A stretch of DNA of 64,000 nt from Savitreella phatthalungensis (GCA_051599415.1 AP039695.1:248001-312000), one strand, 5' to 3'; numbered from the stretch's first letter, positions 8,481-64,000 are shown. Numbers and translations are program-made. The notes: generated by a model from the sequence alone, not told the origin.

Positions 8481-8605
8481 AACCCAGGATCTGCTTCCCC
8501 CTCAATCCCTTCCTACGCTCAATCATCCTCTAAGTCATCAGCATTCATACTCATCTTCAACCTCGCTCGACTCACAACACCTATCTATATACTAACCTAA
8601 CCACC

Positions 8606-33489: not shown

Positions 33490-33873
33490 GACGAATCGAG
33501 TCTAGATCTGGGAGAGCCAAGGCGACCACGTAAGCGATTCCAGAGAAGCTATGCTCCTAGAGATGAGAGTCTTGAGTGTTTGTCTGGGTGTAAGAGGCTG
33601 GCGATCAATATGGTTGTGTCTCCGGGGTGACTTTTTTATTCTCAGATTTTTCCTTGCCTTCAACGTCATTGGTGGAAGGTTATTGTAGGGAAAGGATGTC
33701 AACAACCACGTGACCTTGGTTCAGGATGCACAAAGGCTGATCACTCACGCTTCATCAGGACAAGACATCCTAAGCTGCTTGAGAGGTCAGACGGGGCTAA
33801 TGAAGTCCTTTGAGCGGCGTAGTGGTGTCTCAGAAGCATCATACTGATGTGATCAAGGAGAACAGCGGCTCTG

Positions 33874-37301: not shown

Positions 37302-37345
37302 ATTGAGATAGTCTTCATCCACGAATTGAGATAGTCTTCATCCAC
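37302..37345. repeat. 21-bp perfect direct repeat, period 23 (ATTGAGATAGTCTTCATCCAC x2)
   Basis: Copies read directly at 37302-37322 and 37325-37345. Confidence 0.9.
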
Positions 37346-39525
37346 ATAATCTCTGGTCGGAGCTGAATACTCGTCCTGCCCCAACCGACCGCTATCACCA
37401 ATCTATATAGCACAGGCTGTAATCTACAGACTGAAGGTGGTAGGGAAGCCAGGTAGGGTCTATATTGGCGGTTATGTATGTCCATGGCTGGTACGGGCGC
37501 ATGACCATTAACATGGTCGACCCTGCTAAGCTTCATCTTCGATGTCGGGTTTGACCAATTCTCTCCCTCATTTACTTGGATAGTAATCTATCGCTCGAGA
37601 TAGTTGGCTTGAAGAAGAACAGCTAGGAGTTATGACAATGCTGAGTGAGCTCCAGGATGAATACAATTTTTGATTTGAATTGAATCGAGTTGAATCCGAT
37701 GGAGGTGTACATTACAATATATTGCTTGTGATGGTGAACGGAGGTAATTTCCGTCGGAAGTTGATGATAGTGGTGCTACAATTGAAATGTAATTCAACTG
37801 AAACATAATTCATCATACAGATTGTGGAGTTTAGAATTAATGCTGATATGAATGAGGTGAAAATATTTAAGCTCTGAGACCTTGTCTTAGATCCTTGTAA
37901 TCTTTGACTCAGACGATCAATCAAAAGTGAAAGAAAAGTGAAAACTCCCGGGTGAAACTCAAGTTCAATCCTCCAGATTAATACAGCTTTATAGAACGCC
38001 AATGATCATCATCCTACGACAACAAGAACAGACAAGAGGCCAAACACCTGCGAGCCAGGGAATATGAAGCTCAGTATGAAATTGAAGCAGATCTGGTTGG
38101 TACAGATTCAGGTTGGCTGGAATACCTATTCTGAGGATTAATTTACACTTCCATTTCATAGCAGATTGATATTCACCGAAGCCTCTGGTCGTTCTCATCC
38201 TTACCAGTTCATCTACATCATCCCTCTCTGACCATCACCAACCTCTTCGCTCTGCCATTGATTGCCTCATCTTCGCTTCCACTTTCCCTTCCGAGTCATC
38301 TTCTTAGCCACTGCCTTTTCATAGCCCCTACCACTGACCCGCGTTCCAGGGAATGACCTGATGACCCTTCGGCCGTCGAGTCCGTCGCGCATCCCATCTT
38401 CCCCTGGAAGCTAACTTCACCCAGAGTCATTGGCGAATATTTAGTCTTGCTGAATGTCGCACCCCTCGTGCTGCTGCGGCTGCGGCGTCATCGTGGCATG
38501 TGCATGACTATCATTTTATCCTTGCCAGCCCAAGTCGATTCTTCGGTCATCCACAAGGGAATTAGAGATAGTGAGTACGTCGCTCGAAGTGGGCTGCACC
38601 CATTGGGAAGTGACCCATCTGATGATCTGCTCAAACCTTGTCCAGCTCCTCCGACAACGACGATCGAGCACTTACATGTGAGCTGGACAGAGAGTACGAA
38701 CCCGAGAGACATCCGGGTAAGAAGAGATCAGGTTTACATCAGATCCATTTCCAGGTCACTGCCTCGGTGTCTTTTCCCCCCTTCCTCTGCTAACCCCAGG
38801 CTTTTGCGTCTCTGGCGCATCAAACCCTCCGATGGCGTCGTCCACTTCAGTAAGGATCTTCTGCCCGACTCCGATCTAGCCATGTCTATGCGCTCTCAGA
38901 CCTTAGTCTTTCCGGCAAACCATCCTCCATCCGCAGCAAGCGCTCTTCCTGTACTTTTGTGTCTCTCACTTGCGTCAAGGTGGGGCACCGTATCCGCCGC
39001 CAAGTTCTTTCAAGATCACGCTTGCTCAATCTCGATCAATCATCCCCTACCAGCTTGAGACATACCAACGGCCAGAGGCTAGGCCTGCGCAAGCTCCAAC
39101 TCGGACATCTACCATCTACTCTCTACAATATATCTTGACGCCTTCGCAACCTCACCGAGCAAAACATTCGTTCCTCTAACCAGGACCACGCGCGCGCCCG
39201 ATCTCGCGCTTTGCTTCCGACACATTGTCCTGGAGCACGTTGTTGGATTCTCGACATTCTTGGACCACCTTAATATCCCATCTCGGGGAGAGATCATGTC
39301 AGCGCATCGTAACGTCTACTGCTCGTGAGATTGGTCACGTATCAGCATCGATACCTGCGACATCTTGGTCACAGTACAGCACTCCGATCGAGGCCAAACC
39401 CCGATCGTATATAAGCACAGCATCCTTTGGGACTAGCGGTCTAACCCGGTCAGCTTTAGCCCATCGAGACCTCCTTCAGCCTCTCCTTGCTTCTCCTTTC
39501 TCTTTCTCTTTAGAGCCAGGGAGAC

Positions 39526-42480
39526 ATGCTTTCTATAGTGCTCGGCCTTGCAGGGTCGACCACCTCATTCTTCATCCTCATCTGGGCATACTTCTTCAGC
39601 AATGCCAAGACTAGCTCGGGCAGACGTCCGTCGAGCTCAGAACTCAAGGCCCACCGAGGCGATATCCAGTTACCGAGCACATACTCGTATGGAACAGTTC
39701 GCAAATATCCAAAGGCACGCGTCAGAGACTGGGTCGTCGAAATTGTCTGCTTCATTGGTTACTTCTTCAAATCACGCTCGCTGAATGGTTGGCGTGCATA
39801 CAAGACATGGCTTTATGGAGAAAACTATATTTTCAACTTCATGGTGCCAGGCATTCACCTAAAACCCCGAGTTGTCGTTTCGCCACTGCGAGCACATGGA
39901 CGAGCTCTCGACCTTAATTACCTCGCAGACTGGAAGTCTACAAGCGAGACAATCGATGTGATCAACTGCGCATCCTTCGACTACAGTGGATTCGGTGAGC
40001 TTGAGGAGGGAGCAGCACCCGGTCTGCTCGAATGTCTCCAGACTGTTCCACACATGGAAGAGCGCGGCACAGAGATCATTACTCGTGAGGCAGCAATTGC
40101 CGGTGCATCCTTCCTCGGATCAAAGTACTGCCACTTCACTTCCTCTGGTTACACTCTCAACCTAGTCGGTCTACCGGCGATGACTAATGTCGCACTCGCT
40201 GCTCACCCAGGCAAGCGGGTCATCATCTTGCAGGACGCATCAAACCACAACTCCATGTACGTCGGAGGATTCGTTAGCAAGGGTGCAAAGTCGATCCGGT
40301 TCAAGCACAACAGCGTCTCCCAGCTCGAAGACAAGCTGCGCGAGTACAGTGATGGTAATACGCACATCATCGTCGCTATCGAGGGTAACTACTCGATGGA
40401 GGGCGGCCTTCCGCCACTGCCGGCCATGCTGGAGCTCAAGCGACAGTTTGGTTTCCAGCTCTACGTGGACGAGGCTCACTCTTTCTTCTCGATCGGACAC
40501 TCTGGCCGCGGCGTCATTGAGCATTACAATGATCTCGGGTACAATCTCTCGTGGCAGGACGTCGACTGCTATGCAATCACGCTTTCCAAGAGCGCGGGCA
40601 ACATCGGTGGCATGCTCGTGTGCAACGACCGCGCCATCTACGACGCTATCAAAGCACGTGACGTGGAGATGCAGGCGACCGGCGGTGACGGATGCCTGCC
40701 GACCGTCGTCAAGCTCCGCATGATGCAGATCTGGGGAAAAAATTTGCTCTTGAGTCGACGGATGGCTATCCTCCGACAGCACACGGTCTTCATCCTCGAG
40801 AATCTTCATCGCGCAGGACTTGTCGTCCATTCGGACTATCTCTCCCCGATCATCGTCGTCATCACCATCTCAGCCACCAACTGCGCCCTGTTCGGCACAG
40901 AGTGCACGCGACTCGGTCTTGCGTGCACCTGGGCGGGACCGCCGGCCACAGAGGCATGGCGATCAGTTGGTCGTCTCTGCATCAATGCTTTGCTGTCACG
41001 CGAAGACGTTGAGAATGTCGTGCGTATCGTTGTCAAGGCAGCCGTCAACATCGGCGTAGCCTCTCAGGACTGCTTGAAGCGCATCGAGAACCTGCGATAC
41101 GACTTTGAAGTGGACAAGTCCGACCAGGCTGCGCTAGAGGCAGAGAACGATGTCGTCAACCGAGAGGTCCACAAGGTGTTAAAGCTCCAGCAGGAGCAGA
41201 ATGCCCGTGACGGTCTTACAGGCGCCTCTCTCCTGCGTATCCCGCAACAGGTCCTAGCCGAAGGTGCTCAGGTCGTCGCCCAGCAAGGTATCGGCTCTTC
41301 GTCCGCTCGTCTCTTCTGGGGCACTCAGGTCGCTCACGTGAAACTAGAGGACCGACTTGGAAGCATGATCCCGGCACTAAAGCACATCTGCCAGGACCCG
41401 CACGGGATGATGCTCACTGACGCTCGCAACGCCACCGTCTCGACCCTGTCCGCAATCATGACACCACCGAAGAACAAGCGCGCTTGCAACATCGTCCTCC
41501 TGCCTCGCCCACGTGACAAGGCTTCCGGCCGCGCACTCGAGGAAGCCACGATGTCAAACAAGGCCTCTCCGCGTGTAGTGATCCTCCACTATGACGAATC
41601 CCTGGGAATCTCGTCCACCGACTTGGAGCTGATGACATCGGTTGCACGCAAGGCGCCGTCCGTCTTTGTGACGACGTACGTGCGCGCGTGTGACCCTGCC
41701 ACGGGCAAGCACGCTGACCTGGACGACCTGTTCAAGAGTCTGAAGGCATTTCCATCGCGCGCAGGCATCCCATCGAGCAAAGTGTCAGGGTTCCAGGTGA
41801 TGTTTGACGAGTCCCGCACATTCGGCACATACGGCAAGCGCAAGCTCGGTCTCCTCGACCACCTCGCCACCGCGTCAACCGAGGACTTCCTGGCACGTCA
41901 CGTCGCGTCGCTCGGTGGCAAGGACAAAGTCCGGTTCATCTACGTTGGCTCGCTCCACCACGCGTTCGGTCTCCAAGGCGGATTCGTCGTCACCGACAAA
42001 CTCTTCACAAAGATCCTCCAGTGGACCTGCAGAGCCTTCATCTTCACCACAGCGCCCATGCCCTTCAACGTCCACATGGCTCACCTGTGCATCGACAGGC
42101 TGTGTGGGGAGCGGACTGCCGAGGAAGGCTACACGGTGCTGGGTGACGGCGGTCGAGTGATTCGTGAGGTTGCAGAGTCTGAGAAGATGCTGAGTGCGAA
42201 GAGACGTGACTCTGCTGTTCTGGCGCGCGCTGGCGCTGACGACGTCAGGCAGATGATTGCTCGTGCGGAGCTGCGCAAAAAACAGCTAGAAGCCATCCCT
42301 GCATCCACAGCAAACTCCTCAGACACCGAAGACGGCGACACCACAGAGCGAGACTACCTATCCGAGAAGAACAACAACCTCCTCCTAAACCGCAAGCCCT
42401 CAACCGCAAACGCCAACCACAAACCAGGCAGACGTATGAGCGTGGCTGACATGGTCGACCTTCTAGGTCTCGAACCTTGA
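39526..42480 (+). CDS. Single-chain PLP-dependent alpha-oxoamine synthase: serine-palmitoyltransferase-like LCB2-LCB1 fusion
   Basis: N-terminal TM. The LCB2-like half has INCASFDYSG, DASNHNS, FKHN, EGNYSMEG, DEAHS (D315), TLSKS (PLP Lys355) and PPAT...GRLC. The LCB1-like half has GIGSSSARLFWGTQVAH (G588), FDESRTFG (D761), GSLHHAFGLQGGF (G808, no Lys) and FIFTTA. Confidence 0.85.
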   Translation: MLSIVLGLAGSTTSFFILIWAYFFSNAKTSSGRRPSSSELKAHRGDIQLPSTYSYGTVRKYPKARVRDWVVEIVCFIGYFFKSRSLNGWRAYKTWLYGENYIFNFMVPGIHLKPRVVVSPLRAHGRALDLNYLADWKSTSETIDVINCASFDYSGFGELEEGAAPGLLECLQTVPHMEERGTEIITREAAIAGASFLGSKYCHFTSSGYTLNLVGLPAMTNVALAAHPGKRVIILQDASNHNSMYVGGFVSKGAKSIRFKHNSVSQLEDKLREYSDGNTHIIVAIEGNYSMEGGLPPLPAMLELKRQFGFQLYVDEAHSFFSIGHSGRGVIEHYNDLGYNLSWQDVDCYAITLSKSAGNIGGMLVCNDRAIYDAIKARDVEMQATGGDGCLPTVVKLRMMQIWGKNLLLSRRMAILRQHTVFILENLHRAGLVVHSDYLSPIIVVITISATNCALFGTECTRLGLACTWAGPPATEAWRSVGRLCINALLSREDVENVVRIVVKAAVNIGVASQDCLKRIENLRYDFEVDKSDQAALEAENDVVNREVHKVLKLQQEQNARDGLTGASLLRIPQQVLAEGAQVVAQQGIGSSSARLFWGTQVAHVKLEDRLGSMIPALKHICQDPHGMMLTDARNATVSTLSAIMTPPKNKRACNIVLLPRPRDKASGRALEEATMSNKASPRVVILHYDESLGISSTDLELMTSVARKAPSVFVTTYVRACDPATGKHADLDDLFKSLKAFPSRAGIPSSKVSGFQVMFDESRTFGTYGKRKLGLLDHLATASTEDFLARHVASLGGKDKVRFIYVGSLHHAFGLQGGFVVTDKLFTKILQWTCRAFIFTTAPMPFNVHMAHLCIDRLCGERTAEEGYTVLGDGGRVIREVAESEKMLSAKRRDSAVLARAGADDVRQMIARAELRKKQLEAIPASTANSSDTEDGDTTERDYLSEKNNNLLLNRKPSTANANHKPGRRMSVADMVDLLGLEP

Positions 42481-42630
42481 TTCTCCCAAAACACTTCTTC
42501 CCAATTCCTGTAGCGTGTAGACAAAAAAACAACAACCAATTCGAGCACGCTTGCAAAATCGTTGGGACATCATCTCATTTCCGTGTAGTGTAAGTGTACT
42601 GCTATCTATCGTACTGCGGTGGTGGTTGTT

Positions 42631-44655
42631 TTACGCGTGCTTCGAGATCGGCCGCTGAGTGAAGATGGAGACCGGTCTGACTTTGGTGGTCTGCTGCTGT
42701 TGTTGTTGTGAGGAGGGCCCATCCTGTGGGGGATCGAGGTCGATGGGATCGACGTCAATTCGTCGTCGTTGGTCCCGAGGATCCAACCCATCAGCAGCCA
42801 AGAAATCAACCACATCCAGCGGGCTCTCAGCACCGACACCCTCGTCCTCCACCACACCATCACCCCGGGCGATCCTGGTGATCGGTGGCGGTGGCGGATG
42901 CTTGCGCTTTGGTTTAGGTGGGTCGGTTGGGTGGTGGGTGACGGAGAGGTGGACTGAATGATCTGTGGAGTTGTCGGCGTGGTGCTGTGTGGTCGGGAGA
43001 GGGTGAGGAGGGAGAGGGAGATCGGCTGGGTGGTACTCGGTCAACTCAACCAGGCTCTCACCACCCTCTAGACCAAAATCAACCGGTCGCGCGCCTGTCG
43101 TACCCCGCGGACCAGACGAAGGCTTGGGACCGAACAAGGCGAGATTCTTTGGATACAGCCATGACCACCAGTGCTTGGCGGGATGGTGATCGTCGTCGGG
43201 ATCGCGGGCTGTTTTTGTGGTCGTCGGCGGAGGGTGATGGAGGTCGAGGGCGTTCGGGGTGGTGGGTCCGCTTGGCGCTGTGTCTGTGGTCGTGGCGGAG
43301 TTTGCTTTGAGGTGAGCGTTGCGACCGAGGGCGCGCTCGAGGTCAGCATCGTCGTCCAGATGACGCAGGTACCACCACTCCTGGAGACCGAGCCAGATTG
43401 CATTGTCTGCAAACACGGCGCACGACACGTACGCTAGCGGAATCCACGACGAACCGAAAAACTGCGCAATGAAGAGATTGTACTGGTACTGTCGCGAGTG
43501 CGTCGTTGACCCGGACAGCAGCAGGGACGAGCACAGGCCGACCATGACGACGAGGAAGTGAACGATCGGGTAGACTGCGATCCGGACGATCGTATGCCGG
43601 ACTTCCTTCGAAGTCTCTCGTGTCGGGTCGATGCCGAGATTTGGCGCCATCGGCAGTCGGGCCACCTTCAATGTCCGTCGGACTGGCTCCTCGGAGATGT
43701 TCTCTAGCGTCAAGCGCGCTCGATTCTTGGTGCCGGAAAGTGAAGAGCTTGTGCTCAAGAATGACGGAGTGCCGCGCCTCGGGGACGATGGGCCGAGCTT
43801 CGAGGAGCTGCCGGCAGATACAGATGAAAGACGCTTGTCGCGCGTGTGGTGCGGTGTGACATATGCAGAGCCGCTCAATTTGTGTGGATCGATGACGAAA
43901 GTCTGCTCTGTAACTTCGAATCGCCCTGCAAGCCCATCGGCGTTGTTGCTGAGACCGGCAAGGTCAAAGTCCTGTGCAGGTTCGTACAATTGGTTGAGCA
44001 TGAGCTCTTTTACCGCTTCGCTCTTTTGCTGCTTGAACTTGATGATGATGGCAGTGATGGCTGCAATCATCAGAAGTGTGATGATGAAGATCGGCACCTC
44101 GATGATCGCCGTTTGCCAAGGATCGCCAAGAGAAGAGGTCGTATTGGAGTAGAGCCAGCATGAGTACTTCGAGGGCGAGAAGCGGTAAACGTTGAAAAAT
44201 AGTGGGATGGTAGCCATGATGACGGCGAGACCAATTGAGATGGAGTAGTACCAGCGCTGTAGCCTGTAACGGAAGATATCCGGCTTGTAGAGGGCGAGAA
44301 CGAGGTTGATGCAGATGCAAGATTGTAAGAAATTGTTGGCATTGTAGGCAGCCAGGAGCCACCACATGCTGACTGCGCAGACGGATTGCTTCCGCCGTGC
44401 CACCTCTAGACAGGTGATGGCGTAGCCGACGGTGAATGGTATTGTCAGAAGGACGCACGTCATGAGCATACGCGTTGACGATCTGTTGAAGTGGTGGCGA
44501 GTGCGCGGGTCGGCAAAGACGATCAGCGCGGCCAGAAGCACGAGCACCGTCGCTCCGAGGGAGATCATCGTGACGATGAAGGCGACGAGATTGGCCGTCT
44601 CGCCCTCTGCCACCGTCGGCACAAAGCCGTTCAGCGGATCAGTTGAGCCGGTCAT
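42631..44655 (-). CDS. 7-TM G-protein-coupled receptor-like protein (cAMP-receptor/family-2-like fungal type)
   Basis: Five hydrophobic helices, a long S/R-rich intracellular loop, two further helices (RIAVYPIV, SSWIPLAYV) and a long disordered tail. Cys at the top of TM3 (SVCAV) and in ECL2 (YSCW). Confidence 0.8.
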   Translation of the reverse strand: MTGSTDPLNGFVPTVAEGETANLVAFIVTMISLGATVLVLLAALIVFADPRTRHHFNRSSTRMLMTCVLLTIPFTVGYAITCLEVARRKQSVCAVSMWWLLAAYNANNFLQSCICINLVLALYKPDIFRYRLQRWYYSISIGLAVIMATIPLFFNVYRFSPSKYSCWLYSNTTSSLGDPWQTAIIEVPIFIITLLMIAAITAIIIKFKQQKSEAVKELMLNQLYEPAQDFDLAGLSNNADGLAGRFEVTEQTFVIDPHKLSGSAYVTPHHTRDKRLSSVSAGSSSKLGPSSPRRGTPSFLSTSSSLSGTKNRARLTLENISEEPVRRTLKVARLPMAPNLGIDPTRETSKEVRHTIVRIAVYPIVHFLVVMVGLCSSLLLSGSTTHSRQYQYNLFIAQFFGSSWIPLAYVSCAVFADNAIWLGLQEWWYLRHLDDDADLERALGRNAHLKANSATTTDTAPSGPTTPNALDLHHPPPTTTKTARDPDDDHHPAKHWWSWLYPKNLALFGPKPSSGPRGTTGARPVDFGLEGGESLVELTEYHPADLPLPPHPLPTTQHHADNSTDHSVHLSVTHHPTDPPKPKRKHPPPPPITRIARGDGVVEDEGVGAESPLDVVDFLAADGLDPRDQRRRIDVDPIDLDPPQDGPSSQQQQQQTTKVRPVSIFTQRPISKHA

Positions 44656-47604
44656 GCTTGCCCGTTGAACTGACGTCAGGAGGGTCTCTCAGAAGTCTGT
44701 CGCGCTGAAGTATCAAACGGTGCACATTGTATGGCTGTTGGCGAACAGATGGTCGCGCAAGAAAACTGAAGTGCGCGTCGCCGTGGGGTACGCGGCTCCG
44801 ATCAAGAAAAGAAGATTGAGAAGTAAGCTGCGCGAAGGTGAGGCGAGATAGGAGTCGCGCGATGTGTTCTGCGTCCAAGAGACTTTTCTTGCCGAAGAGA
44901 AGAGGGACAGGCGATGATTGTAGGAGGAGAAGAGCCTTGATACACAGGCTTCCGTTGAACAGTCGCGTGGCAGGACCGAACCTGGGTAACCCTAGCGAGC
45001 TCAGTCACAGCAAAGTCAAGGAGGGAGAAAGAGGTGAGCGGACGCGAACGACTGTGTCTGACGTCTGTGTGCAAGAGGGGGAGCGATCGAGTGCTTGAGT
45101 AAAGTTCGGGAGTACCACGTTCGTTCCGAAGGTTCTGCTCTAGTCTCTGTCTGTATCAAGACTTCAGCACCATTTACCCGATCGGTGTTTTGTGAGAGAG
45201 GGAGAGGTTGAACCGGTAAAGGACAAGGAACGGTCGAGATGCCGGTCAACGGTCGGTAAGCACCGGTCGAATTGAGTAAGGCGAAGTGATGTGAGTGGAT
45301 GATGGTCGTAAGGCCGAACAACGTGGCCCACGCACTCGGTCAGCTCTCATTTTGGGAGAAGATCTGGAGAACCGAGTGAATGGATCAGAGGACACTTGAG
45401 TGAAATGATTGAGAGGGCGCAGCTAGGATGATGACAAGCTCGCTCGGCGATCCACCACTTGGCAAGCATGGTGATCAAACCTGAATGGATGAGTTCGAGC
45501 AGTGGAAACGGTCAAAATGAATGCTCGATTGGGTCTCGGTTCATGTACTTATCACCAAAAGAGATGAATACCGAGTAGGCTTCATCAGTGAGTAATGGGA
45601 AACGGGGGGGTTTGGCAGGGGGTGAGAGTGTTACATGGTAGTGAGAAGGAATTGAAGATGTCTCATGTCATTCCAAGTGGCTGGCCCACTGGCTAGCCTA
45701 AATACATACATACGTACATTTGTACGTGTTAGGTTGTACTCGCAACAGTCTGCATCCATCGAGATCAGATCTGTGTGTTCTGACTCTGTTTGTGCATGTA
45801 TGTATGTATGTACACACATATTTTCTTGTTGATTGTACATGTATCCGAGTGTTGATACATAGGCCGTTTGATGAATGATTGATTGATCAGTTCTTTGTTT
45901 GCATTTTCTATTTCTTGTGTGATATTGAATCCAGCTAGTGCGATTTACAGTGGTCACTTTGACTTTGTGCTTCTGAGCTTGATTGATTCTAAATCGACAG
46001 GGAAAGTTAATCAGGATGGAGTCTGATTGTTGTCAGATTGCCAGGATGCTAGGGGTACGCCACGAAAATAAACCTGTGGCACAGTCATTTGGCCGGATTA
46101 GGAGATTGACATGGATTAGATTTACGCCACTCTCATTCGTCGCTAGTATATCTAAATCAGGACTCACTTTTGGCAAGTACTGATTCATACGCAGAAGGAG
46201 TTCTGATAGAGAAATTTCAAGGCGATTTGGGAAGATCGATCCAGTCAGCACTTGATTACTCTGGATCACCCAAACATAAGCATTACCTAAGTCTACCTAA
46301 ATTCAATCTTCTATGCATTCGCGTTTGTCAGTCTAGGATTCAAACTGTGTAGTGCGCCTCACTACTTACTATACTCTTCAAAGTCAGGCTGACGACGTTG
46401 GTAGAGGCCAATATGAAGACTTTTGAGACATTTTGCATTTGCTGCGCCTACGCACATGTCAAGAATAGCATCCTTCAAAACCTTCGTTCTATTAACTCCA
46501 TCATTGAAGTCCAAATTCCGTTGTCGTGTTGTTGGGTTGTCGTGTTGTTGGCAATTCCATGTGGGTCTCTCTCGGTGGTACTGAAGGCATTCCACCAAAG
46601 GTTGAGCAAAATATGCATGCAAACATAGCTCACATTATCATGGTTTACAGTCTCTGTTATCGAGACGCGCACGACCGCAGTGTCCATCGCGAGATTACCT
46701 CTCATCAGCTAACTTTCGACGCGGTTGGCGGAAGGGCCGTGATACGTCTCGGAGGATCTGTCGGGTCCAGCCGATCAGGTAACTAACTCATCTTATGACG
46801 ACGATAGTCCGAGTTATCGTCGCGAGCGCATTTCATCCACTTAATCTTCCTGTATCCGAAATGAAACCCTGCATAATTGAATGATTCTTCCCCGTGAATT
46901 AATTTTCCTTCCGAGATGCACTTTGCGTCACAGTCACCGGGATCAGTCTGTCTGTCTACTTGTCCCACTTACTGGAATTCGGCAAGTCGGTACGGCACGG
47001 TCTGCCGCTGGATTAATCAATGAGAAGGATACGGGAGTTGAAGCAACGAGAGATGATTCACTTGACTTGTGTCTTGACATGTCGCATAGGACTACACAGA
47101 AAAAATCCAAGGTCTCGCTTAATCGTGCACAAGATCGTATATACCATGAGTTGACTGGCAGAGAATTTGCTTTGGCAACGGCATTCTTCTTCGATATCCT
47201 GATTTGCTAGCGACCGTTAAATTTCTTCCTGTGACGCGCTGCTCGCCTAGACAGCCGCCTGCGGAAGTAAGCGAGCGGTTTTCATTTTTTGAGGATAAGC
47301 GCGCTCGCCTATGTACGGAGGACACCGTACCATACGATTATGTGAGACACGGCATCAGAAGAAACAGTACAGACTCGCAGACTCGATCTGAAAAGTGGGT
47401 CATCATCATAAAGTAAGCTTGAGCTCGCCAGGAGCGTCGTGTCTAAAAAAAAAGAAGATATGAGGCCGGTGACTAGAGTGGTCCTCTGTGGGAAAGGTCA
47501 GATAGAAGATGTGACCGGCAGTAAATGTCTGTGTATGGCTTGACTGGCGAACGAGAGACTTGCGCATAGGAAAATTGCAAAAGTTCCATGATAAGATCTG
47601 CATT

Positions 47605-48987
47605 TCAGAGTTCCAGCAGCTCGACCACATTCACCTCGACGCCGGCGTCCTTGAGGATCGTCATGGCGTTTTCGGGAGTGCGAGCGCTGGACGCATCTGA
47701 AGCTGCATCATCAGACTGAGAGTCATCCTCGGAATTGCTCAGGGCAACCGTTGTGGAGTGAGGTTCGAAAGCAGAAGTCTTAGCAATGGAGCACACAGAC
47801 TCGTCCTTGATCTTAGCCACACGAAGCATCTGGAGCGCGTTGTTGCCGGCGTTCGAGTGCTTGTACACCTTGCCGTGGAAGTCCTCGGTGATGTCGCGAC
47901 CGAGACGAGTTGAGATAAGCGCACGACCTCCAGGGTGGTCAGCCATGAAATCCGTCACGTCGTGGACAAAGCCGTCGCAGATAATCAGCTTGGCAGAGTC
48001 TGCGCGCACGCGTTCGGCCACATCCGAAGCAGTCAGCTCTGGCAATTCTTCTCCCGCCTTTGGCCACGGGATGCGCGCCTTGCGCTCGTCCAGACGCTTC
48101 TGCTGCATCTGGAGACGCGACCTCTCAATGTGGTCGTCCTCGCAGCGACGCAAGCGTGTTGCCAGTTTGAAGAGAGAGCAGACCCAGATGAACGCCTTGG
48201 TCGGGTCGTACTGGTACCAGCGGATAGCGTTACGGTAGTCGTACGGAAACTCGTGGTGGAAATTGTGGTATCCCTCACCATTGGTGATGATGGCAGTCAG
48301 CAGATTGTCGCGTGGGCTGCGGAGGTCATCGTAAGTCGCTTCCCCGAGATAATGGGCAACTGAGTTGATGCTGAAAGTGGCGTGGTGAGAACACGTGAGA
48401 CGGAGCATGCACGCGTAGTAGAATCCACCGCGCCAGTCACCCCAACCAAGTCCGCAGACTAGCAAAGGCGCCGCGACACCAAAGAAGAGCATCAGAGAGA
48501 CAAAGTTCTTGTGCTGCCACTGGATAAGCTTGTCCTTGTCGATGTCTGACATGTCAACGTAGCCAGGTTTGAAGCGGGGTGTGAAGAACATCCATCCCAG
48601 ATGAGCATGCCAGAAGCCTTCGTGGACACCATAGGGATCTTGTGGTGTGTCGCTGTACCTGTGGTGAGCACGGTGACCACGAATCCACCACTTGCCCGAT
48701 CCCTGCATCGCGCCAGCGCCGAACATGAGCAAGACGAACTTGAGTGCGCTGGATGCTTCATAAGCCTTGTGGGCAAACGCTCGGTGATAGCCAGCAGTGA
48801 TAGCCATCGTTGTGAAGAGGTAGTAAATTGCTGTGACCCAGAGCGTGCGTGAGTCAGTCTTTGTCGTGCACACACCATACAACGCCAAAAGTGGAATCAG
48901 CGTGAGTGGCAGGGCGCCGACCTGGAGATGCTTGTAAAAATTTGTGAGCGAGACATGCTCACGCAGAGGGCGAGCGTCGACTGCCAT
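47605..48987 (-). CDS. OLE1-type acyl-CoA (delta-9-like) desaturase with fused cytochrome b5, divergent
   Basis: His boxes HRAFAH, HRAHH and HNFHH, plus GEGYHN and YDPTK. b5 haem motif HPGG. ATG at 48987 (MAVDARP), with TATAAAA on the minus strand near 49197-49203. Confidence 0.93.
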   Translation of the reverse strand: MAVDARPLREHVSLTNFYKHLQVGALPLTLIPLLALYGVCTTKTDSRTLWVTAIYYLFTTMAITAGYHRAFAHKAYEASSALKFVLLMFGAGAMQGSGKWWIRGHRAHHRYSDTPQDPYGVHEGFWHAHLGWMFFTPRFKPGYVDMSDIDKDKLIQWQHKNFVSLMLFFGVAAPLLVCGLGWGDWRGGFYYACMLRLTCSHHATFSINSVAHYLGEATYDDLRSPRDNLLTAIITNGEGYHNFHHEFPYDYRNAIRWYQYDPTKAFIWVCSLFKLATRLRRCEDDHIERSRLQMQQKRLDERKARIPWPKAGEELPELTASDVAERVRADSAKLIICDGFVHDVTDFMADHPGGRALISTRLGRDITEDFHGKVYKHSNAGNNALQMLRVAKIKDESVCSIAKTSAFEPHSTTVALSNSEDDSQSDDAASDASSARTPENAMTILKDAGVEVNVVELLEL

Positions 48988-51900
48988 AATCGATCTTCTC
49001 AGCGCAGAAGTTCTTCTGCTCTTGATTGTCGCTTGGTTCTGCTTGGTGAAATTCCAGGCGTCAATGAAGCTTGACAAAGATTGATAAGTTGTGATGTTCG
49101 GATGGACTCTCCTACGAAGAGTGTCTCGCGTACACTGGAGATTGAGGTTTAGCAGAGACAAGTCGCTGAGCTCAAACGGAGTAGGAGACGACTGTGTTTT
49201 ATAAGGTCAAGACAACTTGTGATCAAATGTCCGTGTCAGAACTCGTGGCAAGTCGGCAGTCGGCAGTCGGCACTATGTCGTGGCACGCACGGGTGTGAGT
49301 GAAGTGGAGCTGGACGGCACATGCTCAGCCCAATATCCTTATTGATACCATACGAAGGTCAAAGAAGATTCCGAAGAGGCGTATGCACTATGAATTTGAC
49401 CGAGGACAATGCCATTGACAGTGCGCTGCAAGCTGATCCCTCATGACTACGTGGTTGTATTAACAGCGCCTTGCAGCCGCGTGGATCCTGCAGATGAGTT
49501 GAACTAGATAAATTCAAAGCTTTTAGACCATTGCAAGTTCGTCTAGATCAAAAGGTCATTGGGAAGAAGGGATGTTATGGACGATTGATCGATTGATACT
49601 TCCAGGAGGTCAAAATCTTGTCAACCACGAAGGATATAGCAGTGAAAGGTCTATGGTCTGTGCGCGTGAAAATGGATTGTCATCTGACTGGCTCAGGAGA
49701 TGTGGTCTGACTCGGCTAGAATTGGCGATAGATCATTTTGCCCAATATTTGTCCCGACCGAGATACATGTGCTCAATCTGGACGGGGTCTTGCAAGAGAT
49801 CCTTACACTCTTTTCCTGTTATTCTGATGTCTCGGTGCCGCTGAGAAAGCTGGGCTCCTGAGAATTTGGGAGGTTTGGAAAAAGCAGAAAGTATCCCCAC
49901 GTAAAGTTTAATAGCTGGACAGGGAAGAGTTCCATCCACTTCGGAACTGATTTGAGAGGCCTGCGTCAGATGCAAGTTTTAAAGTCAGCTTTTCCACGAT
50001 CTAGCTTGATTAACATTGAGCGCGCGCATCGGCCGCGAGCCTCTTTTGGCTGAGACTGCCAACATTATCATACTCACTTCCAGCGATCAATGAAATTGTG
50101 ATTGATCGCAATCTTTTGTACGGGCGTTGGTACTGCAGGGACAATTCTCAAGTCCCACCTAGATCTAAGTCTCTTTGATTTTGGACTGCATCGTGATCAA
50201 CTATATAGAACTCATGGGCGCAACGTGGCATGCCTAGAATCTTCCCAGCGTCACTCCAATCCTAGCATTCTGAGTGGCCAGACTTTTCAGATCCGCTTTA
50301 CAGCATCGGACAAAGATCGGGCTCGGGATCCGCCACTGCCGATGTATACCTAATGAATCTTTCAAGTACAGATTTTCCCGTTCTCCGCAATGACAAGGCG
50401 ATGATTCATAGTCTGATATAAGCTGACAGTAGCCAGATAGAGCATATGCGTGTCAGAGCGGTGCTTCAACCATTGACATGTGACCAGCTGCGGCACCGAT
50501 CTGATATATCCTTGTGATCTCGTGGTCGCTTGGTATGTTTTCCATCGAAGCTTTTGCAAGTGCTTAATCAATCTTGTGGCAGAGTGCAACTCTATCACAT
50601 GCGCCGCTCGACCGTACCCGTCCGTCCGCGCGTCCAGGCAATTCTGTCGACTGATCCTAGATTTTCCGCTTTCGAGATAATCCCACGCAAGTCGCCTCGA
50701 ACATGTGATAATGTCCTCTTTGTCGCTACAAACCGTCGTTGACAGGGGCAATGACCCGAGTCCAGATGATGTGACATGGCGGCACGATGCAAATGCAGTG
50801 GTTACCCCTCCTGCCCAACCGAAAGGACTGCCCTTTAGCAAGCCAGCCAGCCTGGTGCATACAAGCTAAGTCGCATTATTTCAGATCAATCATTCTCTGC
50901 ACGGATCTTGTGCTTCACGCATTTGAATCTAAAATCTGCTGCATCTTTCTACAAGCAATCGAAGCTAGGGATACAATGCATGAGAGATGTTGCGTGCATT
51001 CATTTGAATAGGGCTCTAGGATCCGCAAATGACCAAAATTGGGGTATACAGACACGTGCTCGTCTTGAGCGCGATGCGGCTTTTCACAGTCTTGTGACCG
51101 ATCCTGTTCTTTTGATACTGCTTGTCAGCTTCTACCTGGTCAGTTCTGTCTAAAGCACGCTGCCTAGTTTTCGGATAATTCTGCATGCATTCTGCAGGGC
51201 GGACACTCGCCTGGCGAAGATCATCTGCGAAGCCTACTCATTCCAAATCTACGAGATCTGTCATACTTCAGTTTCTAGCATGGGACAAGCGATTAAGCCT
51301 ACTTTCGCACGACTTGACAACGGACAGATTAGCACACATCTTATTTGACTTATTGACAACTTGATCCGCTTCCCAGCGGAGCGGAAGCGTGCTTCGTCTT
51401 GTACCCATAAACCTATCAAACAAGGAGGATGAGAGAACTCGATTAGTTAGTCTACATTGTGCTCCTCAAAAATCTATGTACCAATCACCGCAGCGGATCT
51501 CGTAGAAGGTATATTCAACGGCTCTCCTACGGAGGATTCGTAAAATGGGAAAGCGGTCAGGTGGGGGTGTCTGATTTGGCTGGAGATTGAAATGCCAAAT
51601 TCGTCCATCCGCAATTGTTCTCGTGCAGAGATTCTTTCTCGATCGAGTGAAATGCTAAATTCGAATTAATCCACCCTTTTTCGATCGTGATCAGCAGATA
51701 GAAAAGGTCCGCGCTTGATTGGAAGTCGTCATCGTTTCCTAACAATATCTCAGAAAGGAAGACATATACTTTGCAGGTGAGAATCACTAATTGTGTCACG
51801 TCAAATTGTAAGAAAAGTACTGTGATCCGAGTTTGTCGAATCCATCTGCATCTGTGAGCATATCTGGCCGAGCCCAAGCACGAGCACGGAAAACGGGCGG

Positions 51901-52342
51901 GTGAATTGGAAGTGCAGGTAATTGAAGCGAGCTTGATGACCATTCTGAGATGAAGAGGAGAACTACATCCCGGTGTCCCAGGACGCTTACGATCGCTTAA
52001 ACAGTGGCATTTGCCAACACAAATTGATATTCTTCTCCCTGTCGAGCCTCAGACGCGTCACGAAGACTTTGCTTTTTGACGTCGAGCCCAAAAGCTGGCC
52101 GAGCTTTGTCCTCGATTTCCGATACAAGCTCCCAGACGTTTGCAGGTTATCCAGTTCGACAGTTTCGCGTGCCGGGCCCACTTCGCACGGTTCTCCATCG
52201 TCCCGATCCTCACGATCTTTACTCAAGTTATGATCTGAGCGGCCGCATTGCTGGCAGATACTTCTCGACCTGATGTTTAGCATTGCTTCATCGGAGCTGG
52301 CGTACGACCTTTAGTGAAGATCGACTCTTTCGACGGCGAGCA

Positions 52343-53920
52343 ATGATGAATCGCTACGCAGCCTGGCTCGCCGTCGGCACTGTTCTCTGGTGCGCTTCTA
52401 CCTCTTTCGTCTTCCTACGGCTCAACGAACGTAGGCGTAAGGCTCGACTGAAGCAGGCGGATTACGTCACCATTTGCGCTTGGTCGTTATCCATCTTCTT
52501 CCTGGTTGCATACCTCTTCTACGGAACTGTAATTTACGATCTTGCCGAATCAGCGCCACGCCCTTCGGTAGCCATCGCCTACTTGCTCTTCAACCTCTCA
52601 CATGTGGCCGTCGTTCCAATAATCAAGATCAGCATTATTCTTTTGTACCTCTCGCTCCGACCATCACGGTGGCAGCAGAGGCTACTCTATGCGCTTCTTG
52701 TGTTCAGCGTCGCACGCCTCGTGGCCTTCTTTTTCATCACACTATTTGGTTGCTACTATGCACAGGATGGTCTGGTCTGGAATGTGGTCGACCAATCTCG
52801 CCGCGAACGGCAGTGCATTCCTCAACGACCCGTAATTCTGATCAACGGAATCACTAGCACAATGGTCGAGATTGCTCTATTCCTGCTCGCTCTCCCGTTT
52901 CTGCACACGGTCCGGTCGAGCTTTTCAGCCAAATTTGGGCTTTTCATTGGCTTTGCAATGGGGCTTGTCACAATCGCAGGCACACTCACCACAACCGTCT
53001 TCACCTTGCTCGCCTGGACAAGTTTAGAAGACCGCGATTTTGTGGCGGCCGGAGGCAAGTTCTTCGGCGCTGGTATGGCTGCTACCGTTGAAGTCAATGT
53101 CGGTCTAGCCATTGCGTCCATTCTGCCGCTCCGTCGAGCGATCGTCAAGTTCCTCGCCACGCAATTCGCGCGAATGGGTCTGACGCAACGTCTCGGGGAT
53201 GCTCAAAGCACTGCAAGCAGGTTCAAGCAATCTATCAAGAGTTCTCCTGTCTGGCCAGGACAAAATGCTGGACCGACACGTCAATCGACCCGATCGGCAG
53301 AATTGTTCGATAGTGGAGGTGTGCTGGAGAGCGGTGCGCGGCAAGAGCATCGCGAGAGCGGCGCGTCCGCTTCTTCTGGATCTGAGCTCGACACTTGCGA
53401 GTACGCAGATACGCTGCGCTGGCCAATGCGAGATCTACAATTCCCGGACCTCAACACGCTGCGACGTGGCAGCGTCTCCGCCTTGCAGATCGTCAAGACC
53501 AGGACTGGTAACGCACTGGGGCTCACGAGCACAGAGAAAGTTGTGGACAAACGGAAAGAGCGCGGGTCCGTAGCTTCCCTATGGAGTCACAAATCTGCTG
53601 TGCTCAATCGGATCGACGAGTCGGAAGTACGTCAGAGTTCATCTAGCAGTGAACGATCTCGGCAAGATGGGCAGCTTCAGCATGCGATGAATTCGAAACA
53701 GACGCAGGTCGTCGATCTTCTTGCCCAGCCTATGCCAACGGCGCACGTTACATCTGATCAACAACGGCTCCATCCGGCTCAGCAACTTCTGCCTCTGCCT
53801 GCGACGACTGACCTGGTCAACCTGCGACGCGAACGACGCCTCCAGTATGGCAATCAACACGACGACCAAGATGAGATTCCTATGGCTCCGACGAGTCCAA
53901 CTGCTTTCACTTTCGGTTGA
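52343..53920 (+). CDS. Pth11-like (fungal rhodopsin-domain) integral membrane receptor, no CFEM
   Basis: About 7 TM segments with family motifs LRL...ADY, IKISIILLYLSL, F.C...W...C and EVNVGLAIASILPLR. Long hydrophilic tail. First ATG at 52343. Confidence 0.85.
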   Translation: MMNRYAAWLAVGTVLWCASTSFVFLRLNERRRKARLKQADYVTICAWSLSIFFLVAYLFYGTVIYDLAESAPRPSVAIAYLLFNLSHVAVVPIIKISIILLYLSLRPSRWQQRLLYALLVFSVARLVAFFFITLFGCYYAQDGLVWNVVDQSRRERQCIPQRPVILINGITSTMVEIALFLLALPFLHTVRSSFSAKFGLFIGFAMGLVTIAGTLTTTVFTLLAWTSLEDRDFVAAGGKFFGAGMAATVEVNVGLAIASILPLRRAIVKFLATQFARMGLTQRLGDAQSTASRFKQSIKSSPVWPGQNAGPTRQSTRSAELFDSGGVLESGARQEHRESGASASSGSELDTCEYADTLRWPMRDLQFPDLNTLRRGSVSALQIVKTRTGNALGLTSTEKVVDKRKERGSVASLWSHKSAVLNRIDESEVRQSSSSSERSRQDGQLQHAMNSKQTQVVDLLAQPMPTAHVTSDQQRLHPAQQLLPLPATTDLVNLRRERRLQYGNQHDDQDEIPMAPTSPTAFTFG

Positions 53921-54568
53921 CCTGATCCCATGACAGGTCATTTTCCCTTCTGCTCCTCCCTGAATTATGAACTTGCTCTGCGAATAGGCGACACGCATCT
54001 CCGTAGTAGATACCAGACAATACACACAGGCAGTCCTTTTACAAGCGAGTCACCAGAGTTTCCACTCCGACGACATTTACCGAGATCATGATCACGCTGT
54101 GCTATATGATGTCCCGTAGACCTGGTCCGAACAACGATCGAGATCCTGGCTGCAATCTGATATACCATTGACTGGGACGTGAAGTGCTGCTATGCTATGG
54201 CTCTGCTTCAGGCTAGATCTGAGCAATCTCAATCACCAGCAGAAACGGAATTCATTCTCTAGAATGAGAAGACGGAAATCGAAAATGATTGGCTGAGTTT
54301 GTTTGCAAGGTGATGTCACGCGAGCTTCCCCGTATAACACAATTGACAGGGATTCTGCGAGTGTAGTTGACCAGATCCTCGTCCTACAGAGTTCGACACT
54401 CTCACACGCTTTCAGGCAGACATCCTCATCTCGGACGAGTCTTGTGTGGAGGCATCGATGCTACGGATCTTGAATCACAGAGCATTACAAGTCAAACTAC
54501 CAACTTCGACCTTCAGGCTCATCACACCGACAGCTAAGATCTACAGGGTTCAGTCGTCAATTCGCTCA

Positions 54569-55357
54569 ATGGCTAATCATGGGACAGTCTCACATGTGAT
54601 TAAGTGAGTCAGAATTGTATTCTCTGAGCCATAGCTGATATCTCTCCAGGGATGATAAGTCTCGACTAGACCGTCCGCCATATAAGAAGCAGGAAAACTT
54701 CAAGGCCTCATATTCCGGACATTGCTTCTGCGGTGCTGTTCAGTTCGAGATTTCCGGAGAGCCAAAAGCAAACTGCTTCTGCCATTGCAGATCATGTCAA
54801 CGCCTGCACGGAGCTCCTGCCACACTCACCTCCATCTTTGAGAAGTCTCAAGTCCATTTCACTAAGGGTGCGGAGGAAGACCTCGTGTTTTACTCGCCTC
54901 AGGAGAAGGTCACAGAGTACAAGCTCCCACTGAAGATCTCTTGCAAGCAGTGTCATTCACCAATTGGCAACGAAGGCAACAACATGATTCTCGTAAGCGA
55001 TCTCCAAGAAGCTAGTTGAACCCTACTAACATACAGATTGCCCCTGCACTCATCGAGTTTGAAAACGAAACAGGCGACAGCAAGGACGGTGGACGTCTCC
55101 CGGAAGCATTCAAGCCGGACTTTCACCAGTACTATGGTACGCGTATTCGTGACATTGAGGATGATTTACCAAAGTTTGGTGCAGAGCAAGGGAAAGACCC
55201 TCTCAACAAAGCTGCGGAAGAGATGTGTCGAAAGCAAGAACGCGAAAAAGAGCACAAGGAAGCTCAGTCAAAGACTCGCGAGGACCTTAAAGAGCGCAAG
55301 CCCGATGAAGGTGAAGAGACGAACACAAGCGACAAGCAAGGCAAGCAAAAGGTATGA
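54569..55357 (+). CDS. GFA/CENP-V (Mss4-like) Zn protein, 3 exons (54569-54603, 54650-54992, 55037-55357)
   Basis: Introns 54604-54649 (GTGAGT..CTGAT..CAG) and 54993-55036 (GTAAGC..TACTAAC..CAG). The spliced frame gives YSGHCFCGAVQF...CFCHCRSCQRLHGAP...ISCKQCHSPI...FKPDFHQYYGTR...DDLPK. Confidence 0.9.
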
Positions 55358-55725
55358 ACAGCACAGATTGCCAAAGTTTTGCCACGACTCATGCACTCTT
55401 TTACGTATGACCCGAAGGGGACAAGAACTGACCATCGCTCGTAGAAGCAACGAACCCAATAAGCATCCATAATGAAGCGGCACGCCAGACCATAGCGCTC
55501 GATGCGAGCGCTGCACGGCAACGGACAGATGAAGAAGGAAGTATGAGCCAGACAGTATCTTGAGACACTTATTGAGTATGCACGTGATTTCATAAACTGT
55601 CAGTTGCATACACGGATCAAATTCAGATACCGCATGCGTGCCTGTATGAGGATACTGTTTGGAGCAACCCGTCGAGGTAAAGTGCTTCAGCAGTTTACGT
55701 AGAGTCAGATCGCACGGTCCTCAGC

Positions 55726-57264
55726 ATGGCTGTGGCCACGATCCAGAGTTCAACGACGCGTCGAACGATCGGCACGTCTACAGATGATCTGCCAACGATA
55801 GCGGCCGGACACACCGTCCTCATTCGGCTCCCATCGAATCAGATCAAGCCAGTCATCTTGAAAGCAGGCTCACACAGCTGCTCACTCGGCAAGTTTGGCG
55901 TATTTGACCCTCAAAAATTCGTCGGACATCCGTACGGGCTGACATACGAGATTCTGGAAGACAAAGCAGTGCGCGTGCTCGAAGGTCAGACGATAAAATC
56001 GATCGAGCAGGACGAAGCGGAGGACGATGATGAGGAGATTGTAGTTGCGGAGGAAGTCGAGCTCGGTCGTACCACGCCGAACAACGAGTTTATCAATGAT
56101 GAGAACTCACGCAATCAGTCACTATCTCACGAGCAGATCGCAGCACTCAAAGACAGCGGCGACCGCGAAGCCCTGATCGAACTACTCAAACGCAACAGCC
56201 GCACGTTCGGCCTCAAGACCGACTTCTCAAAGGACAAGTACATGGCTCGCAAACGCGCAAAGTACTCGAGGCGATTTGCGACTATAGTTCCATCGCTATT
56301 CGAGGTGCTGGAGTTCCTGAGTGAGAAGGAAGGCGGGCTGAAATTTCCCGTAAGTGCTGAGAGCTTTGGGTATCTGCTCAACATGGCTGACGTGCGGCCA
56401 GGTGGGACGTACCTGGTGGTTGAGGATCTCGGTGGTCTAGTGACTGCTGGTGTACTTGAACGAGGCGGGAAAGTGTTGCTGGTGCACGAGTCGGAGCACT
56501 ACAACGCGGACAACCTAAAGTACTTTGCCCAGTATGACGTCGATGAGCTTGTGCGGACGGGACGCATCCAGTCGCTCAACTGGGCGCAAGCTGTAGACGC
56601 CGAGCTCGAGCTACAAGAGATCGTCCACTACATCGACACACATGGACCGATCGCCACGAAGCGACGGCAGCGCGAGAAGCTCGGCAAACGTCGAGGACTG
56701 CACAAGACGCTCGAGAAGTTCGTTGCCGGCGGGTTTGACGGGTTGATCTGTGCTTGCGAGTTGCCAGCCACAGCAGTCGTCGAGGCACTCTTGCCACGAG
56801 TCGGGCTTTCGCGTAAGCTGGCAGTCTATCACGCGTATCGCGAGCCTCTTCTTGAGCTACGCCACGCACAAGGCCTCCTGGCCGATTCGCTCATTGCACA
56901 GTCAATCGTCGAGCTTCGCGCACGTGAGATCCAGGTCATTCCTGGCCGTACCCGACCTGTCATGACAAAGTCTGCAGAGTGGGGCCACGTCTTCCATGCT
57001 ATCAAGGTGCTCAAAGACGACTCGGTCGAGGCGAGCGCAGCTGTACAATCGGGCAAGCGCAAGCGCAAAGGTCCTCGAGATCCTCAGATCGATTTAGTCG
57101 ACGACAACGATGAAGGAGACAAAATGACGGGCACAGATCCAGGCACGGAAACTGCTATCAAGCGCGTGCGCACCGAGTCGGATGATCTGACGCACGACAA
57201 GGAAGAGCGAGAGCAAGAGCACAAGAATATTCCCATGGCAACGGCTGGAGAATCAATGGTTTAG
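55726..57264 (+). CDS. TRM6: tRNA m1A58 methyltransferase non-catalytic subunit Trm6/Gcd10
   Basis: SLGKFG, GHPYGLTYEI, NQSLSHEQIAALK, TFGLKTDFSKDKYM.RK.KY, and QVIPGRTRPVM. Confidence 0.93.
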   Translation: MAVATIQSSTTRRTIGTSTDDLPTIAAGHTVLIRLPSNQIKPVILKAGSHSCSLGKFGVFDPQKFVGHPYGLTYEILEDKAVRVLEGQTIKSIEQDEAEDDDEEIVVAEEVELGRTTPNNEFINDENSRNQSLSHEQIAALKDSGDREALIELLKRNSRTFGLKTDFSKDKYMARKRAKYSRRFATIVPSLFEVLEFLSEKEGGLKFPVSAESFGYLLNMADVRPGGTYLVVEDLGGLVTAGVLERGGKVLLVHESEHYNADNLKYFAQYDVDELVRTGRIQSLNWAQAVDAELELQEIVHYIDTHGPIATKRRQREKLGKRRGLHKTLEKFVAGGFDGLICACELPATAVVEALLPRVGLSRKLAVYHAYREPLLELRHAQGLLADSLIAQSIVELRAREIQVIPGRTRPVMTKSAEWGHVFHAIKVLKDDSVEASAAVQSGKRKRKGPRDPQIDLVDDNDEGDKMTGTDPGTETAIKRVRTESDDLTHDKEEREQEHKNIPMATAGESMV

Positions 57265-63671: not shown

Positions 63672-64000
63672 TATGTATATGTGTGTCGAGTGGTTAGTTC
63701 TCTATGCGACGACAAGAAGTCAATCTTCTGGTGCTAGATTGGCACGATGGTGTGCAAGAGGCGGTTCCTTGGTAGAGGTAGGACACTGCCTGCCCAGCAG
63801 GACGCAATCCAGACTCACGTTCGGGCTGAGACGTGATGGTCCGTGTAGTGGATTGTAGGTCGATAGGATAGTGGACAAGCCGAGCAAGTGACTCTCGGGA
63901 GAGCAGCGCAGTGATCGAGTGACTGCCTGGGCAGCTTCCCAACCGACGAATTCGATTGAGCGTGTGAAAAGATCAAGCGCCTTGAATTTATTCCTTCGAA

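Follow-up and report, generated by a model that had tools for sequence, protein, structure and literature searches.

We examined a 64,000-nucleotide stretch of DNA from Savitreella phatthalungensis (GCA_051599415.1 AP039695.1:248001-312000), hereafter called the window, in which an earlier note had proposed that four consecutive genes at positions 39,526 to 53,920 make and sense a lipid signal. Three of these genes recur together in several divergent genomes. They code for a two-domain synthase related to serine palmitoyltransferase (SPT), a seven-transmembrane (7-TM) protein whose predicted fold is that of a G protein-coupled receptor (GPCR), and a delta-9-type desaturase. We consider it probable, if narrowly so, that this trio is a conserved and lineage-restricted lipid module of Taphrina/Protomyces-like fungi. 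An open reading frame (ORF) and translation check finds each of the four genes as one long uninterrupted frame, as follows.

39526-42480, + strand: gene 1, two-domain alpha-oxoamine synthase, 984 amino acids (aa), 100% identical to P0005 over its full length
42631-44655, - strand: gene 2, seven-helix GPCR-like membrane protein, 674 aa counted from the first ATG
47605-48987, - strand: gene 3, delta-9 desaturase-cytochrome b5, 460 aa, identical to P0090
52343-53920, + strand: gene 4, Pth11-type/Fung_rhodopsin membrane protein, 525 aa counted from the first ATG

Genes 1 and 2 lie tail to tail, and the 150 bp (42481-42630) that the earlier note gave as the distance between their stop codons is correct. 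Genes 3 and 4 are divergent, with 3.3 kb from start to start. The placement of all four between a CWC27-type cyclophilin gene on one side and the GFA and TRM6 genes on the other also holds, with every frame and both flanks where the note put them.

The synthase, the seven-helix protein and the desaturase

The description of gene 1 as a fusion of two SPT-type alpha-oxoamine-synthase domains is upheld by Pfam, by profile matches to structures in the PDB and by the residues of the pyridoxal 5'-phosphate (PLP) site. The two halves of the protein occupy the following positions.

39901-41070, + strand: catalytic N-half, LCB2/SPT2-like, about residues 126-515
41209-42165, + strand: Lys-less C-half, a truncated alpha-oxoamine-synthase pseudo-subunit, about residues 562-880

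The Pfam family Aminotran_1_2 (PF00155) matches residues 199-504 of the 984-aa protein (E = 1.1e-16, 61.5 bits against a cutoff of 19.7). When the N-half is compared with the PDB by phmmer, Arabidopsis LCB2a (E = 1.7e-33) and human SPTLC2 (E = 4.7e-29) rank above bacterial SPT, AONS, KBL, ALAS, CqsA and SphA. The PLP-site residues H241, D315, H318 and K355 are invariant in all nine sequences of the synthase family and align with the same residues of LCB2a, where H241 is the ring-stacking His, D315 and H318 belong to the DEAHS motif, and K355 is the PLP lysine. Identity of the N-half to LCB2 proteins is just 24-31%, and the 984-aa protein shows neither the high identity nor the presence across fungi expected of an LCB2 orthologue.

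Structure prediction points the same way. The AlphaFold2 (AF2) model of the synthase has a predicted local distance difference test score (pLDDT) of 61.9 and a predicted TM-score (pTM) of 0.63, and its best Foldseek matches are LCB2/SPTLC2 chains (7yjm_B, E = 2.5e-19). A VIA alignment of the N-half, taken as model residues 126-515, to 7k0i_B gives a Z score of 23.2 and a root-mean-square deviation of 3.8 with 380 aligned. As the VIA comparison covered the N-half only, the fold of the C-half is read from sequence profiles and from a model of the complex. A single-sequence search of the PDB with the C-half gives weak matches to alpha-oxoamine synthases, and a profile built from six C-halves matches bacterial SPT 2x8u (E = 2.5e-8), Arabidopsis LCB1 (E = 5.6e-7) and also AONS. 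The catalytic lysine of SPT aligns opposite His812 in the C-half, and five homologues carry E, E, Q, S and H at this position. In short homologues the C-half stops about 30-40 residues past an F-x-T-A-P motif, and thus the small C-terminal domain is missing.

When folded as two separate chains, the N- and C-halves are predicted to dock with an ipSAE of 0.80, and the best of three controls scores 0.00. Between runs, at least 81% of contacts are shared, the partner has a pLDDT of at least 78, and the mark used is attained by 51 of 78 solved complexes and by 2 of 108 mismatched pairs. The predicted interface includes K355 and T842, wherein Thr842 of the C-half contacts Ser354 beside Lys355. The synthase also has an N-terminal hydrophobic helix (residues 1-25), and full-length homologues begin likewise. 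Gene 1 codes for one membrane-anchored chain with two alpha-oxoamine-synthase domains, the first of which carries all catalytic residues of SPT subunit 2. The second is predicted to pack on the first like the second SPT subunit, which would create a single composite active site.

Most members of the synthase family have a variable low-complexity tail followed by a short hydrophobic end (VASLAL, VEALAL, VALLAV, VDLLGLEP), located in the window at about 42440-42477. In Foldseek, the whole synthase model aligns over 795 columns with the P-protein of a cyanobacterial glycine decarboxylase, which is a single-chain pseudo-dimer of the same fold. A recent internal duplication as the source of the two halves was rejected, as hhalign of the N-half against the C-half yields a 34-column local match with a probability of 7%.

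With eukaryotic LCB1/LCB2 (SPTLC1/SPTLC2), the enzyme shares the layout of a membrane-anchored dimer of PLP fold-type I with one catalytic and one Lys-less subunit, but it is fused in one chain and has a restricted distribution. It probably represents an additional copy and not the essential SPT. A single-chain SPT is also carried by coccolithoviruses (EhV). In this viral enzyme, a Lys-bearing SPT2/LCB2-like domain comes first and a Lys-less domain second (PMC6148460, section 2.3; PMC5371807), and the window synthase has the same domain order. The fungal protein differs in that its C-half is truncated and no closer to LCB1 than to bacterial SPT, and in that its gene forms a conserved trio together with those of a 7-TM protein and a desaturase. 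When the family alignment was used for a pattern scan of viral contigs, which detects fairly close relatives only, no viral relative of the fusion family was found, and kinship with the coccolithovirus SPT is therefore not established.

The second gene had been described as a receptor, and this stands for the fold of the protein, ligand and coupling aside. The AF2 model has seven long helices with a core pLDDT of 80-93; its third loop (about residues 226-344) and its tail are both long and disordered. All 50 Foldseek matches listed are GPCR chains, with TM scores by target of 0.33-0.66, and 13 matches reach E = 1e-3 or better. The closest Atlas clusters are fungal Dicty_CAR/Git3 GPCRs, with a score of 0.96. 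On the strength of the seven-helix model, the Foldseek matches and the Atlas neighbours, we regard the fold as GPCR-like. In its model, the protein resembles cAMP-receptor-like and Git3/Gpr1-type fungal GPCRs in having seven helices, a long third loop, a long tail and the GPCR fold, whereas in sequence it falls below the threshold of the Pfam models for these receptors. The strongest Pfam match among its relatives is 7TM_GPCR_Srsx in P0214, at 20 bits against a cutoff of 24.1.

A word-index search with the 7-TM protein yields a single relative, and a full HMMER search collects 60 proteins at E = 1e-3 or better. The close family, in which the helix core is covered, comprises seven full-length members (P0089 at 61% identity and P0210-P0215 at 35-40%) plus fragments. 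More distant relatives are basidiomycete proteins at 20-32%, and automatic annotation calls two of these 'GPCR family 2 profile'. Conservation in the 7-TM family peaks in cytosolic motifs rather than in the helices, at residues of about 220-232, 245-252, 328-340 and 437-449 (window 42634-44655, - strand). These motifs read roughly MLNQLYEP, RFEI-E and KVARLPM, which belong to the third loop, and DLE-ALGRN-H, which lies past helix 7. They may be docking sites for a partner.

The third gene product carries the Pfam families FA_desaturase (E = 1.7e-18) and, at its C terminus, Cyt-b5 (E = 7.4e-14), and matches human SCD1 at E = 6.1e-45. The His boxes HRAFAH, HRAHHR and HNFHHEF and the haem motif DHPGG can be read in the translation. 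The domain order, the three His boxes and the HPGG element are common to this protein and OLE1/stearoyl-CoA desaturases. Identity is 57-63% to P0091-P0096, which include the Taphrina deformans and Protomyces proteins, 54% to P0097, and about 50% to a wide range of fungal OLE1 proteins. In a FastTree phylogeny of the 120 best hits, these eight desaturases, that of the window included, form one clade with Shimodaira-Hasegawa-like support of 100 and a stem of 0.63. Root-to-tip distance is 1.70 in this clade versus 1.19 among the remaining 112 sequences. Because long branches are flagged in the tree, branching orders beyond the clade should not be relied on.

Unlike OLE1, the linked desaturase belongs to a separate long-stem clade, is tied to the synthase and appears to be a second copy in its genome. 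The probable source assembly has a second contig of 13925 bp (depth 53 vs 44) whose match is confined to the conserved core of the desaturase (48178-48246 and 48356-48388, 81-88% identity), and a contig from sequencing run X4 likewise matches the core only. Such matches suggest that the genome has a paralogous delta-9 desaturase at another locus. With a second desaturase-like locus in the assembly, the linked gene is therefore not the sole delta-9-type desaturase. The earlier note had named a desaturase that is the only housekeeping copy as grounds for refutation; the second locus and the long-stem clade speak instead for a divergent extra copy.

Three further runs bear on the same region. Contigs of run X2, which comes from the same sample as the probable source and which we guess to be DNA, cover window positions 35000-54999 and break near gene borders. 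Their word depths range from about 155 to 16000 and are highest over the desaturase; these very uneven depths were not used to rank genes. Run X3 yields only short pieces at 90-99% likeness, and X3 and X4 are uninformative on synteny.

Linkage in related genomes

The check that the earlier note proposed, a search for the same neighbours in other genomes, gave a positive answer in that the trio is kept in several divergent genomes. Besides the window's own protein, there are eight full-length synthase homologues, which come from Taphrina deformans, Protomyces lactucae-debilis and six Logan assemblies. After these, the next matches drop to E = 1e-29. Members of the synthase family are 45-71% identical to one another, and thus the linkage spans several deep lineages. 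The co-located sets are as follows.

T. deformans, 244112-bp contig: fusion CCG80548.1, one gene between, desaturase CCG80550.1
Protomyces lactucae-debilis, 95924-bp contig: fusion ORY73924.1, one gene between, desaturase ORY73926.1
7406-bp contig: fusion P0008, 7-TM protein P0210
8545-bp contig: fusion P0011, 7-TM protein P0275
18905-bp contig: fusion P0276, 7-TM protein P0213
16618-bp contig: fusion P0012, 7-TM proteins P0217 and P0218, desaturase P0095
5261-bp contig: 7-TM protein P0212, desaturase P0091

With the window counted, a 7-TM homologue is co-located with five of the nine fusion-family members and a desaturase with four of nine, whereby P0009 and P0013 are informative neither way. 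No desaturase was seen on the 7406-, 8545- and 18905-bp contigs, and no fusion on the 5261-bp contig. The T. deformans and Protomyces pairs, with exactly one gene in between, mirror the window order of fusion, 7-TM protein and desaturase. One further pair was excluded from the count: the contigs of P0010 (5953 bp) and P0214 (5954 bp) are not of the same size. A 90% relative of P0010 is co-located with a different 7-TM protein. On the 16618-bp contig, two separate protein calls, P0217 and P0218, stand for the 7-TM homologue and correspond to query residues 6-158 and 207-455, which may be due to an intron, to a frameshift or to a gene that is itself split.

As a control we used metagenomic loci of generic fungal delta-9 desaturases, and in none of 80 does a homologue of the fusion, of the 7-TM protein or of the Pth11 protein appear at E = 1e-5. 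At least 8 kb is available for 28 of these loci and less than 3 kb for 38, and they derive from a metagenome scan seeded with P0097, which missed the contig of P0097 itself.

The fourth gene, the long spacers and the rest of the window

The protein encoded by gene 4 matches Fung_rhodopsin (PF20684) with E = 1.1e-23 and 84.4 bits, where the cutoff is 27. Its sequence contains about seven hydrophobic segments, and Pfam reports no CFEM domain in it. This Pth11-like gene may be a mere neighbour of the trio.

The spacers ahead of the three cluster genes are unusually long, at 3-4 kb, compared with a few hundred bases between genes in the rest of the window. Their positions are the following.

35398-39525: spacer upstream of the synthase gene, no Pfam, Rfam or tRNA match
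44656-47604: spacer upstream of the 7-TM gene, 2.9 kb, no recognisable gene
48988-52342: divergent spacer between the desaturase gene and the Pth11-like gene, 3.3 kb, no recognisable gene

All three have a lower G+C content, of 0.47-0.51. They contain no Rfam family and no tRNA, and none of their ORFs reaches the threshold of a Pfam family; in 44656-47604, the ORFs scanned were those with 80 aa or more. Their sole Pfam signal is a sub-threshold match to ADD_DNMT3 (E = 0.0076) at 46353-46628. A search for promoter repeats shared among the cluster genes gave only chance-sized matches. The sequence GATCAATCAT, allowing at most one mismatch, occurs at 15 sites in the window compared with 6.6 +/- 2.3 expected, and none of 100 shuffles reaches 15. 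Nine of the 15 sites are found within 35.6-50.9 kb, mostly in the upstream spacers of the cluster genes (39034, 45875-45888, 49581, 50098, 50884 and others). We treat this enrichment as a lead only, because the motif was picked after the repeats had been seen and because the spacers are richer in A and T.

The genes that flank the four are listed here.

33853-35397: cyclophilin gene, CWC27-type
54639-55019: GFA gene
55681-57264: Gcd10p/TRM6 gene

Otherwise, the window is an ordinary gene-dense segment of a fungal chromosome with a G+C content of about 47-61%. Its remaining genes are housekeeping genes such as those for Hsp70, a nucleoporin, tubulin, thymidylate synthase and NAD kinase. Of the 39 ORFs with 200 aa or more, the Pfam scan covered 24, together with three shorter ones, and the 15 left out overlap longer ORFs in other frames. 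Among the ORFs scanned in the 64 kb, there is no polyketide synthase (PKS), nonribosomal peptide synthetase or transporter family, as the earlier note had stated. A tandem pair of subtilase (Peptidase_S8) genes lies at 12337-13608 and 13751-15091 on the - strand. Three long ORFs match no Pfam family: 18650-20593 (- strand, 647 aa), 21573-22274 (+ strand, 233 aa) and 62544-63737 (+ strand, 397 aa).

Proposed function, alternatives and meaning

Since the three genes lie side by side here and in distantly related Taphrina-like fungi, they probably work together on a lipid. The fusion enzyme would condense a long-chain acyl-CoA and a small amino acid, serine being the likeliest, into a sphingoid-type aminoketone. 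Serine is the probable substrate because the alignment with LCB2 contains an SPT-like loop and arginine. The linked desaturase, as an extra and fast-evolving OLE1 paralogue, might either supply a monounsaturated acyl-CoA or desaturate the product, and its action before the synthase is a guess about the direction of the pathway. The product of the module would then be an atypical unsaturated long-chain base. In the least supported step, the protein with the GPCR fold might sense this lipid or a precursor, as a feedback or autocrine signal. We think it unlikely, but worth stating, that the trio is a self-contained lipid signalling unit, whose product would be released and then sensed by the GPCR encoded between the two enzymes.

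Such an arrangement has bacterial parallels. In the CqsA/CqsS system of Vibrio and the LqsA/LqsS system of Legionella, an alpha-oxoamine synthase makes an aminoketone or hydroxyketone signal and is encoded beside the sensor. Structures of CqsA match the N-half of the window synthase (E = 1.2e-6 by phmmer, Z = 21.6 by VIA). However, the bacterial synthases are homodimeric, their sensors are histidine kinases, and no desaturase is involved. Among fungi, alpha-oxoamine synthases are present in the gene clusters for fumonisin (Fum8), sphingofungin (SphA) and myriocin, and the SphA structure 9pep_A matches the window synthase at E = 1.6e-8. These clusters are PKS-centred and belong to Pezizomycotina, whereas the window lacks a PKS, its synthase is a two-domain fusion, and the acyl donor is presumably a fatty acyl-CoA.

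The author of the earlier note was not aware of a description of such a fungal lipid signalling module. Lipid-GPCR signalling is already described in fungi, for example for the hydroxyoctadecadienoic acid (HODE) oxylipins of Aspergillus and GprC (PMC11133280), and the new element would be a conserved enzyme-receptor gene cluster. Literature searches, full text included, found no description of a fungal two-domain synthase family or of its clustering with a GPCR-like protein and a desaturase. A term search of two Taphrina genome papers, supplements left out, found no mention of the synthase family or the cluster.

Several points weigh against a lipid module. Co-location was read not from DNA but from the same base-pair size of the source contig (small contigs) or from near-consecutive accessions (named genomes), and the middle gene of the T. 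deformans and Protomyces pairs is known as an accession gap only. The AF2 models are middling, with pLDDT values of 61.9 for the synthase and 56.2. Foldseek E-values for the model of the 7-TM protein are modest (2.5e-4 and weaker), and neither this 674-aa protein nor any of 14 relatives has a Pfam family above threshold. Because similar SPT/AONS dimers have been solved, the docking result may reflect the memory of the model and speaks for likeness, not proof. More broadly, the case for a module is built on genes, linkage and models.

The alternative that survives best, which we nevertheless find rather improbable, is a purely metabolic module. The trio would produce a special membrane lipid, and the 7-TM protein would be a membrane partner such as an ORM-like regulator, a scaffolding protein, or a protein that exports or flips the long-chain base. 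The linkage data fit this explanation equally well, as does the lack of a Pfam GPCR family above threshold in the 7-TM protein, and the conserved cytosolic motifs in the third loop and past helix 7 could serve as docking sites for enzymes just as for G proteins. It is also known that SPT enzymes act in membrane complexes together with small regulatory subunits (PDB 7k0n and 8c80). What argues against a non-receptor role is that the 50 Foldseek matches listed are all GPCRs, with no transporters or ORM proteins among them, that the Atlas neighbours are fungal Dicty_CAR/Git3 receptors, and that distant basidiomycete relatives have been auto-labelled as 'GPCR family 2 profile'.

A lipid module of either kind has to be set against the possibility that the genes are inherited neighbours without a common function, held in an ancestral order by slowly rearranging genomes. 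Taphrina species are reported in PMC4007546 to be highly collinear with each other, with 89% colinearity between T. wiesneri and T. deformans. Moreover, the linkage comparison is confined to the trio itself, and the promoter repeat search gave only chance-sized matches. However, the same paper reports that gene order is lost against S. pombe, and the trio persists between lineages whose fusion proteins are just 45-55% identical. The three families are also confined to the same small set of lineages, the desaturase belongs to a dedicated, fast-evolving paralogue clade, and none of the 80 generic desaturase loci has such neighbours. We therefore judge an accident of inheritance to be distinctly improbable.

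Least probable, and to our minds very doubtful, is that the fusion is the housekeeping SPT of the lineage (LCB2 and LCB1 fused) and the desaturase an ordinary OLE1. In its favour, LCB2/SPTLC2 chains are what the N-half matches best in structure and sequence, and the family conserves the N-terminal membrane helix. Against it, identity of the N-half to LCB2 proteins does not exceed 24-31%, the C-half, which has no small domain, resembles bacterial SPT and AONS no less than LCB1, the fusion family is absent from the other fungi found in the homologue search, and the assembly contains a second desaturase-like locus, with the linked desaturase on a long branch.

In fungi, to our knowledge, it is extremely unusual for an enzyme to be encoded together with its receptor. 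A trio of synthase, 7-TM protein and desaturase that is kept across deeply diverged lineages is a rare genomic pointer to the ligand of an orphan fungal GPCR-like protein, and it is small enough for a direct test by knockout and lipidomics. The synthase also brings a fungal case of the single-chain SPT-type layout, which has so far been described for coccolithoviruses (PMC6148460). Crop pathogens, among them the peach leaf curl fungus, belong to the lineage, and a private lipid pathway in them would be worth knowing. If the signalling version of the module is true, the trio would be a eukaryotic counterpart of the CqsA/CqsS logic, perhaps serving cell-density or yeast-to-hypha decisions in Taphrina-like plant pathogens.

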